A DNA stretch of 20,498 bases from a virus. Taxonomy: Duplodnaviria > Heunggongvirae > Uroviricota > Caudoviricetes. The stretch lies in IMG/VR virus record IMGVR_UViG_2877280126_000007. One strand, given 5' to 3'. This document shows positions 2,924 to 5,024 of this stretch, one piece after another. A model generated the notes under the pieces. That model saw only the letters and a list, made by a program, of their open reading frames with translations, searched no databases and was not told where the DNA came from. Numbering within the stretch: the stretch's first letter is position 1; every line of letters begins with the position of its first letter. A program made the position numbers and the translations under genes.

Positions 2924-3706
2924 TTATGCTGCCCTTTTCATTGCGAATGGAACGCGAACAAACACGATCTCTTTATAGCAGCGGCAGTTTGGCAGCTCGC
3001 CCGCGTGGCCGGTCATGCCGTCCAAAGTTGGAGGTGAATCCCAGCGGACGAATTTACCTTTCATGTGATCGTGGGAATCTCGGACATCGCCATCATCGGC
3101 TGTACGCCAAATATAACCATCCGAGCCAATAGCTATCGCTCGGGCCATATCCAGCGCGCCCGTTGCTCTTCCCAGTTCCGTTCGGGCAATCAGATCGGCC
3201 CTAGACTTAGCAACATCGCCGGTAGATGCAATCTCTTTAGCAAACTGCTCCGCCCGACCACCGGTGACAACAGCCTCTATCGCTTTGTTCTGGATGTCGT
3301 ACACCCTGTCTGCGGCCTCGAGAGGCAGAGATTTGATGTACTTGACCTGTTCGGCGATGATGGATTGCATCACCTGGCCCACAGGAGCGCTTTCCACAAG
3401 ATTGCGGAGCTCGCGACTGATGTTCTTGCTGTGTTGCCGCCAAACTTTCTCGTTCTGCCGGGTTAGGTCCGCAGTAAAGTTTTCCGCGACCTTTGTCGCC
3501 CAGGGGGTGATGATTTCACTGTAACGCTCCAGCGCCGCAATAATTTCCGTGATACTGTCATTTGAACCATCGTAGCGACCATTTACGATGTCTCCGACCG
3601 CCCTCGCTATCCTGCGTAGGCTGGTTCGATACCGGATTTCCGCCTGACGGCTCCTGCGGTTCGTCATCAGGTTCGCCGATGCCGGGCGGCGCTTCATCTT
3701 CGGCAT
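2924..3706 (-). CDS. Phage head morphogenesis protein (Mu F / SPP1 gp7 family)
   Basis: 260-aa ORF whose C-terminal region (…RTADDGDVRDSHDHMKGKFVRWDSPPTLDGMTGHAGELPNCRCYKEIV…) resembles the MuF-like minor head protein signature. ATG at 3706 has a GAGGA Shine-Dalgarno. Overlaps the portal 3' end by 149 bp in another frame. Confidence 0.7.
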   Translation of the reverse strand: MPKMKRRPASANLMTNRRSRQAEIRYRTSLRRIARAVGDIVNGRYDGSNDSITEIIAALERYSEIITPWATKVAENFTADLTRQNEKVWRQHSKNISRELRNLVESAPVGQVMQSIIAEQVKYIKSLPLEAADRVYDIQNKAIEAVVTGGRAEQFAKEIASTGDVAKSRADLIARTELGRATGALDMARAIAIGSDGYIWRTADDGDVRDSHDHMKGKFVRWDSPPTLDGMTGHAGELPNCRCYKEIVFVRVPFAMKRAA

Positions 3707-5024
3707 TCTCGATGTCCTCGTCGGTAATGGATGCCCCGATGCCGGTTACGTCAGAATTTTCTCGCAAATCAGTCATAGCGGCTTTCAGTGTCATCAGACC
3801 ATCACCCAGCGCCGTACTGATTGCGTTGGTGGTGTTTAACGCCACCGTTGAGCGATCGACATCAGACATTTGCCAGAGCGGGTTAAACTCAAACGTGAAA
3901 TCGTCCGGCAGCGGCTTGCCAAGTTCCGAACGATGCATGATGTCCAGTATCCGCCGCACCGGAAGACGTAAACGCCTCTCCTGCAACGAACTGATGCGAT
4001 CGTAATAGTTGGCAAGGTCTGCATCACCGGTAGAAAATCCTTTCGGGGACTGTCCGAACAACCGCACCAGTGGGATACCAACAGCGCCACTAATCTGTTC
4101 TACAAACTGCGAAAGGATGTCATCCAGACCACTGAAGCTGTACTGATGGGTTTCAAACTTATCCCGCGAGTCCATGAGCGTCATGCCTTCATTACTCTGG
4201 AACTGTCGAATCAGGTCGATATTCTTCAGCAACGCTTCATACGCAGGACCACCAAGTGCGATAAGCTCGCGTAGCTTCTCCACGCTGTAGGTACGCAAAT
4301 GCGCCTTGTAGACCAGCTGCGCCGCGCCGACAGTAGCGCTGTCGAACGCGGTAAGACGATCCCAGATACGCTCTACAACCGACATTCCCCATTCGTTCTC
4401 GGTCATCTTCTGCTGAAATGGCAACGTGACGCCATCAAAGCGAATCAGGCGACTGTGATGAATGCGCCAGGCAGGAATTCCCGTTGCTGTGGTCACCACA
4501 TCGTAAAACTCAGGTTTACCCAGGTCCGGCCCCATATCTTTAATGCGGCGGGTCAGTGCCGGGTCGACCATCCAGCGGTCGAGCGGGAGAATCCCCTTAA
4601 ACTTGCCCTTACCGATGGTTTCGGGTCGCAGCGGGGTCATTGGTGCCTACCCCTCAATCATGATGAAACCCACCGCGCCGCCGTAGAGGCGCGACCATTT
4701 CAGCACGTCATTCAGCGCATCCCAGATTTGCAACTCATCCAGTTGTGATTCGAGAATGCCACGATCTTTTGCATCAATTTCCGAAGTGATGCGAATGCCT
4801 TTGCGGGTCATATCATCCGGGATAGCATCGACTGCTTCGCCGATGATCTAGGATGAACGATAGGACCATTCCACCAGCATGCGGTTACGACTGGTGAAAT
4901 TAGCCCGGTAGGTGGATGCTGAGTGCTGGTTAGGTGTCTGCATCCCTACGCGGGCAATAAAATTCTCATAACCATCAGCTGTGGCCTGCACAGTTCGCCG
5001 CAGGGCTTGTTTGTTTCGTGCCAT
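3558..5024 (-). pseudogene. Phage portal protein (DUF1073-like) interrupted by two in-frame TAG codons
   Basis: The 360-aa ORF 3558-4640 is in the same frame as two upstream segments (4650-4847 and 4851-5024). The ATG at 5024-5022 overlaps the terminase TGA (ATGA coupling). Only the TAGs at 4850-4848 and 4649-4647 break the frame; there are no frameshifts. Read-through length would be about 486 aa. Confidence 0.7.

Follow-up and report, generated by a model that had tools for sequence, protein, structure and literature searches.

A portal gene interrupted by two amber codons in a lambdoid prophage remnant of Shigella sonnei

We analysed a stretch of 20,498 nucleotides deposited as IMG/VR record IMGVR_UViG_2877280126_000007 (the window hereafter), which is a piece of the Shigella sonnei chromosome and carries the remnant of a lambdoid prophage. 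The portal gene of this remnant is, with a probability of about 0.9, a pseudogene inactivated by two nonsense mutations. Two independent point mutations, from TGG (Trp59) to TAG and from CAG (Gln126) to TAG, became fixed in the lineage that gave rise to S. sonnei. Starting at the native ATG (5024), translation would end after 58 residues, and at most short or N-terminally truncated fragments (54 and 360 residues) would arise by chance re-initiation, lacking the invariant N-terminal part of the portal domain. For phage production these ambers would make no phenotypic difference, as the remnant is devoid of major capsid, head-completion and tail genes, following a truncation associated with the insertion sequence (IS) IS1. 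The late operon is also broken at the holin, by IS2 and an IS110-family element.

Inactivation by two nonsense mutations in a defective prophage had already been put forward in the initial annotation, made from the sequence alone. It is supported here by the ancestral state of the two sense codons, the fixation of the allele, the loss of the capsid and tail genes and the insertions at the holin.

The portal reading frame and its ancestral codons

The features of the portal gene are as follows, with coordinates given in the window.

3558..5024, minus strand: portal pseudogene (DUF1073 / Phage_portal_3 / HI1409 family), 99.8% identical to the intact WP_000113499.1 gene
4848..4850, minus strand: amber codon 59, TGG (Trp) to TAG through a G-to-A change at 4849
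4647..4649, minus strand: amber codon 126, CAG (Gln) to TAG through a C-to-T change at 4649
4101..4103, minus strand: codon 308, GCA (Ala) to GTA (Val), which completes the three lineage-specific substitutions of the portal gene
4848..5024, minus strand: open reading frame (ORF) of the 58-residue N-terminal fragment (codons 1-58 plus TAG), annotated as a gene in S. sonnei genomes
4647..4811, minus strand: ORF of the 54-residue inter-amber fragment (Met72-Gly125 plus TAG), matching the 54-position family phrog_28295
3558..4640, minus strand: ORF of the 360-residue C-terminal fragment, from the internal Met129 (Q3Z426_SHISS)

When read and translated, the frame 5024..3558 comprises 488 codons followed by TGA, without any frameshift, and contains exactly two internal stops, both TAG, at codon 59 (SYRSS-amber-IIGEAVDAIPDDM) and codon 126 (IEG-amber-APM), in agreement with the initial annotation. 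The number of stops expected in this segment, from 5000 shuffles, has a mean of 20.9 and a minimum of 7, and the remaining five frames contain 9-35 stops. The portal frame, with only 2, is therefore a real gene with two lesions. Some details of the earlier description have to be adjusted. An ATGA overlap with the terminase stop had been placed at 5021-5024, whereas the junction actually reads TGATG, the TGA of terL (5026-5024) and the portal ATG (5024-5022) sharing one base. The ATG at 4640-4638, which starts the 360-residue ORF and had been said to follow the second TAG by three codons, is indeed the third codon after it, with two codons in between.

The gene is assigned to the portal family by matches to PF06381 Phage_portal_3 (E = 5.8e-104, residues 55-402, profile positions 7-355 of 357) and to phrog_146 (E = 1.4e-174), and by a TIGR01555 (HI1409 family) score of 255.1 bits for the repaired or intact portal, above the cut-off of 196.25 bits. 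Among solved structures, the portals of cyanophage Pam3 (8hds) and of Pseudomonas phage E217 (gp19, 8fvh) belong to the same sequence family, as the intact orthologue matches them with E values of 2.2e-37 and 1.1e-14, respectively, and both W59 and Q126 align to identical residues in the Pam3 portal. The position of the gene, directly after terL and followed by the MuF, DUF2213 and Gp24 genes, is that of the head-morphogenesis module. In contrast to the members of Phage_portal_3, TIGR01555 and phrog_146, the window copy cannot be translated through its ambers: no uninterrupted frame covers the whole portal domain, due to the TAG at codons 59 and 126, and the largest fragment, of 360 residues, scores 186.1 bits, under the TIGR01555 cut-off. 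The window copy is a pseudogene of the portal family, not a functional member of it.

A megablast search against complete Escherichia coli genomes found the portal gene in 382 of them. Three E. coli prophages (FDAARGOS_944, FDAARGOS_943 and VL40), which have the same gene order (terS-like, terL, portal, MuF, DUF2213, Gp24), encode the intact 488-residue protein WP_000113499.1 with 99.8% nucleotide identity to the window. Only 3 of the 1467 bases differ, corresponding to W59 (TGG to TAG), Q126 (CAG to TAG) and A308 (GCA to GTA), all three being G:C to A:T transitions. Outgroups with 85-99.6% identity all carry TGG, CAG and GCA at codons 59, 126 and 308. These outgroups (loci L014, L002, L003, L026, L027, L030, L028 and L033, of which five to eight were used per comparison) include induced vB_EcoM coliphages, S. 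flexneri-type genomes, Shimwellia and Apirhabdus. Since every outgroup has the sense codons, the three changes in the portal gene are derived in the lineage of the window. Thus, of the three residues that the initial annotation had considered (Trp, Gln or Tyr), Trp59 (TGG) and Gln126 (CAG) are those replaced by the ambers, each being one transition away from TAG.

The same gene is also found in more distant phages. Escherichia phage vB_EcoM-606R2 has a 488-residue gene (URC08706.1, named 'hypothetical protein') at the same place after terL, the vB_EcoM phages showing 98.0% identity, and the portal gene of Salmonella phage SEN34 occurs in the same order with 85% nucleotide identity. In the intact relatives the 488 codons are open and are followed by major capsid (DUF2184), neck and tail genes, whereas in the window codons 59 and 126 are TAG, codon 308 encodes Val, and capsid and tail genes are lacking. 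Two of the outgroup loci, in S. flexneri SFBU1023 (L026) and in 'E. coli' ECMA0423 (L027), contain the same prophage with portal codons 59 and 126 intact and with other damage: terL has lost 7 bp, Gp24 has lost 17 bp, and an insertion splits the region. Here the same phage seems to have decayed separately, within a different Shigella lineage.

Conservation of the lost residues and possible portal products

We compared the portal with 53 full-length homologues recovered from 59 loci of GTDB species representatives. Y55 and R56 are invariant, Trp59 is kept in 46 of the 53, within a Y-R-S/G-S-W motif, and Gln126 is kept in 52. Val at column 308 is found in the window only. The frame is open from the equivalent of codon 1 in all 53 homologues, none of which starts at the equivalent of Met129 (ATG 4640), and residue 129 is a Met in only 8 of them. 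A natural start at ATG 4640 is ruled out by these open frames, and, taken together with the shortfall of the fragment against TIGR01555, the homologue starts indicate that this ATG encodes an internal Met.

The initial annotation had considered that a start at 4640 might give an N-terminally truncated product, in which case the 360-residue ORF would encode a functional portal-like protein. This ATG is preceded by a weak AGG/GAGG purine run, two codons past the TAG, and the ORF is annotated as a gene in thousands of assemblies. However, besides a start that no homologue uses, such a protein would be deprived of residues 55-128 of the Pfam domain, including the invariant Y55 and R56, would score below the TIGR01555 cut-off, would carry the unique A308V substitution and would have no partner proteins in the remnant. 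We consider a functional truncated portal very improbable, and the fragments are presumably without function.

The second alternative raised in the initial annotation was amber suppression, by which read-through would restore a full-length portal, conditionally functional in the way of a laboratory amber mutant. In its favour, the stops are both TAG, in a frame that shows no other lesion. However, Trp is needed at one site and Gln at the other, which a single suppressor cannot supply, and W59 belongs to a near-invariant motif. Moreover, TAG serves as the ordinary stop codon for two genes of this remnant, the terS-like gene and Rz, and a restored portal would be useless without the capsid and tail genes. 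The window contains no tRNA genes, and no CTA anticodon occurs in the tRNA clusters found upstream of the holin in the prophages of relatives (loci of ~20 kb), where the anticodons are CAT, TCT, TGT, TCC and TAC only. A suppressor tRNA encoded elsewhere on the chromosome would not make the remnant functional. Restoration of the portal by suppression thus appears extremely improbable, and read-through of the two ambers is probably absent.

Comparison with known in-frame ambers leads in the same direction. Laboratory amber mutants are known in the portal genes of several phages (lambda B, P22 gene 1 and T4 gene 20) and share with the window a TAG in an otherwise intact portal frame. Nevertheless, these mutations are single, were isolated in the laboratory and are grown on suppressor hosts, in phages that are otherwise complete, whereas the ambers of the window are natural, double, require two different amino acids and lie in a remnant incapable of making a particle. 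Stop-codon-reassigned phages, such as crAss-like and Lak phages, read TAG as an amino acid and, like the window, have in-frame TAG in late structural genes. In the window, by contrast, the two TAG codons are confined to one gene, the orthologues have TGG and CAG at these positions, TAG terminates neighbouring genes (the terS-like gene and Rz), and no suppressor tRNA is found nearby or, with a CTA anticodon, in the clusters of relatives.

The double-amber allele in Shigella

The double-amber allele has reached fixation among the S. sonnei genomes sampled. The exact 360-residue product is indexed in 2576 assembly blocks, with complete genomes including HE616528.1, which serves as an S. sonnei reference in the literature, and the exact 58- and 54-residue products are indexed in 2737 and 2758 blocks, respectively. 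The sources label the 360-residue product as Shigella sonnei (Q3Z426_SHISS), and look-ups of the 58- and 54-residue fragments returned S. sonnei alone. Across three sets of S. sonnei genomes, portal DNA with both TAG codons matches the window base for base in 9 of 10, 3 of 6 and 6 of 7 genomes. The non-identical genomes have single-base indels, which shift the frame between the two TAG codons (a few assemblies), or an IS630 insertion (one genome), and both TAG codons are present in every genome read. Likewise, four IMG/VR contigs have both TAG codons and are identical to the window over the portal DNA that they contain. A sequencing or assembly error at one or both TAG codons, which the initial annotation had named as a possible refutation, is ruled out by these population data from independently assembled genomes and has a practically negligible probability; the TAG codons are real. 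As for the inactivation being recent, as proposed earlier, this holds for the divergence from the intact copy, of only ~0.1%, but not for the population, as the mutations predate the sampled S. sonnei genomes.

The genome with the insertion (locus L100, CP022672.1, 109-1261) has a 1153-bp IS630-family element within the TA of the TAG at codon 59, the TA being duplicated (...tcatccTA|IS|TAgatc..., window 4848-4851). The target of IS630 is the tetranucleotide CTAG. Because the G-to-A change turned CTGG into CTAG, the nonsense mutation created the insertion site. One of the IMG/VR contigs (locus L088, IMGVR_UViG_2734482572_000004) is identical to the window over 1092-8716 and then shows 21 mismatches in the next 180 bp, corresponding to the 5' part of rrrD (window 8717-8895). 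At this junction the contig looks either recombined with a different lambdoid lysis cassette or chimerically assembled.

The 58-, 54- and 360-residue ORFs annotated in thousands of S. sonnei assemblies are pieces of one dead portal gene and merit a single pseudogene annotation. The fragments have entered the protein databases as separate entries, in UniRef and as a 54-position PHROG family. The latter, phrog_28295 (function unknown), matches the inter-amber fragment exactly, from residue 72 to residue 125 of the intact portal. Some N-terminal portal fragments bear the NCBI names 'anti-CBASS protein Acb1 family protein' and 'Alpha/beta hydrolase'. It seems that spurious families and names have grown out of pieces of the pseudogene.

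On the S. sonnei branch, 8 substitutions are derived in the 7.75-kb remnant, comprising 2 nonsense, 5 missense and 1 synonymous changes, 6 of which are G:C to A:T. They are distributed as follows.

3558..5024, portal gene: W59am, Q126am and A308V
8405-8902, rrrD: P41L, D127Y and R136C
7938-8408, Rz: C18R
DedA-family gene: one synonymous change

The four S. sonnei-specific changes in the lysis genes rrrD and Rz are all missense. The derived changes fit decay without purifying selection, the 8 events being too few for a test of the ratio of nonsynonymous to synonymous substitution rates (dN/dS), and neutral fixation under relaxed selection would account for them. The presence of exactly two TAG codons was also considered as a possible signal. 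In the ancestral portal gene, 49 G:C to A:T transitions create a stop, and 28 of them (57%) give TAG (from 17 CAG and 11 TGG codons), so that TAG is the commonest outcome of a nonsense transition and the probability that both stops are TAG is ~0.33, which rules out a special meaning.

Shigella reference genomes contain at least 199 pseudogenes each, formed by IS elements, nonsense mutations and frameshifts (Hawkey et al. 2020, PMC7373316). As in this general degradation, the window has a nonsense-mutated gene fixed in Shigella among IS1, IS2, IS110-family and IS600 elements; it differs in that the gene belongs to a prophage and is not a core metabolic or virulence-related gene, and in that two nonsense hits are somewhat above what is typical. 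Shigella pseudogenes as a class were already known, and so was this locus, through the fragments annotated in every S. sonnei genome; no new mechanism is involved. The locus is rather a clean, well-polarised example of the decay of a Shigella prophage, combining point mutations with IS1, IS2, IS110-family, IS600 and IS630 elements.

Several observations weigh against two neutral mutations that arose independently within the S. sonnei lineage. First, at least the amber at codon 126 may not have originated within S. sonnei itself. In S. dysenteriae 1, strains Sd197 and 1617 have a 360-residue portal fragment (ABB62211.1, Q32EP4_SHIDS) which starts at the same Met129, retains Ala308, the ancestral residue, and shows four private missense changes. 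The start is placed at Met129 rather than at Met122 by three annotation sources, and a stop between codons 123 and 128 is therefore likely in S. dysenteriae, most simply the same Q126 amber, as judged from the annotated proteins. If the amber is shared, the codon-126 mutation pre-dates S. sonnei or moved by recombination; if it is not, the two lineages carry independent lesions. Searches for the corresponding DNA and N-terminal sequence returned other genomes: a GTDB scan for the portal brought up no S. dysenteriae but S. flexneri-type genomes in which codons 59 and 126 are both intact, IMG/VR scans gave only contigs whose portal DNA does not differ from that of the S. sonnei window, and a protein search with the N-terminal 128 residues, together with a cluster listing, gave only a fragment of 103 residues at a contig edge, labelled S. 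flexneri / S. dysenteriae, in which W59 is intact.

Second, the 8 derived changes are unevenly spread, with 3 in the portal gene, 3 in rrrD and 0 in the ~4.5 kb of terS, terL, MuF, DUF2213 and Gp24 (simulated p ~0.04, which is marginal and post hoc). Third, 2 of the 3 portal changes are nonsense, with a p value of 0.004-0.011 that would apply to a gene chosen beforehand, whereas this gene was picked for its stops. These figures give a weak hint of non-random targeting. They bring in the possibility that positive selection in the host, and not neutral fixation, favoured the portal knock-out and perhaps the endolysin damage as well, for instance if expression was harmful. Such selection would be consistent with 3 of the 4 lineage-specific changes in 8183-1175 falling within the portal gene, two of them nonsense, with the three further missense changes in rrrD and with the uneven spread of the changes. 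On the other hand, its significance depends on the same 8 events and on a locus chosen because of its stops, the loss of the portal gives a lysogen no protection from lysis, and many pseudogenes, neutral or mildly deleterious, become fixed in S. sonnei. We regard positive selection as very improbable. A broader scenario, in which the portal knock-out (possibly with the rrrD damage) was selected in the S. sonnei ancestor because the portal was harmful or sensed by a host defence, or in which, relatedly, the codon-126 amber pre-dates S. sonnei and moved between Shigella lineages in a non-viable head module, also seems very unlikely, if a little less so. Decay of the portal gene by two nonsense mutations remains the preferred explanation.

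The prophage remnant around the portal gene

The neighbouring genes and the IS elements that delimit the remnant are listed below.

5024..6427, minus strand: terL, intact, 467 residues, its TGA overlapping the portal ATG by one base
6378..7142, minus strand: terS-like gene, 254 residues, ending in TAG (phrog_370, E = 7.5e-95)
2924..3667, minus strand: MuF-like head morphogenesis gene, intact, 247 residues, overlapping the 3' end of the portal gene by 110 nucleotides
1700..2920, minus strand: DUF2213 / Pa193_gp24-like gene, intact, 406 residues, with PHROGs matches to head maturation protease
1190..1696, minus strand: Gp24-like cement / minor capsid gene, intact, 168 residues
407..1174, minus strand: IS1, 768 bp, with a terminal repeat at 1152-1174
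8925..10255, plus strand: IS2, 1331 bp, near the 3' end of the holin gene, with transposase ORFs of 301 and 121 residues and flanks that map to positions 2101 and 2105 of locus L001
10464..11911, plus strand: IS110-family element, 1448 bp, with a 398-residue transposase, just upstream of the holin start

The terS-like gene is full length, and the lengths of terL, MuF, DUF2213 and Gp24 match those of the intact relatives, which bears out the earlier description of the terminase, MuF-like and scaffold genes as fully open. The gene described there as a scaffold is the DUF2213 gene; it is indeed open over 406 residues, but its PHROGs matches are to head maturation proteases.

A gap-free alignment of the window with the intact FDAARGOS_944 prophage extends from 1175 to 8924 only. 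At the lower end, the IS1 boundary at 1174/1175 abuts the fourth nucleotide of the major capsid (DUF2184) gene, of which only 4 nucleotides (1178-1175) remain, and the far side of IS1 in S. sonnei genomes is chromosomal (pgl/ybhD), with genes for a lactonase, a LysR regulator and an aconitase-like protein. Nothing is left in the remnant of the neck and tail genes, and the capsid gene is gone but for those 4 nucleotides. Both the IS1 cut in the major capsid gene and the IS2 in the holin had been overlooked in the initial annotation. The prophage is defective (cryptic), and no particle could be formed even with a working portal.

Further along, the region 12851-20498 of the window contains three IS600 copies (14397-15553, minus strand; 16012-17168, plus strand; 19342-20498, minus strand) and other IS3-family fragments, together with the following genes.

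17347-18033, plus strand: QueH-like gene
18204-18416, plus strand: hok
18666-18953, plus strand: rem-like ORF
18950-19345, plus strand: DUF1367 gene, truncated by IS600

These four genes form a lambdoid late-regulatory segment which is separated by the IS600 copies and inverted relative to the head genes. Its arrangement varies among S. sonnei genomes, being either of the 53G type or of the type seen in the window. Finally, a gene for a DedA-family membrane protein (7337-7849, plus strand, 170 residues, TTG start) lies between the lysis genes and the terminase on the opposite strand. It resembles a moron and is intact in S. sonnei as well as in the intact relatives.

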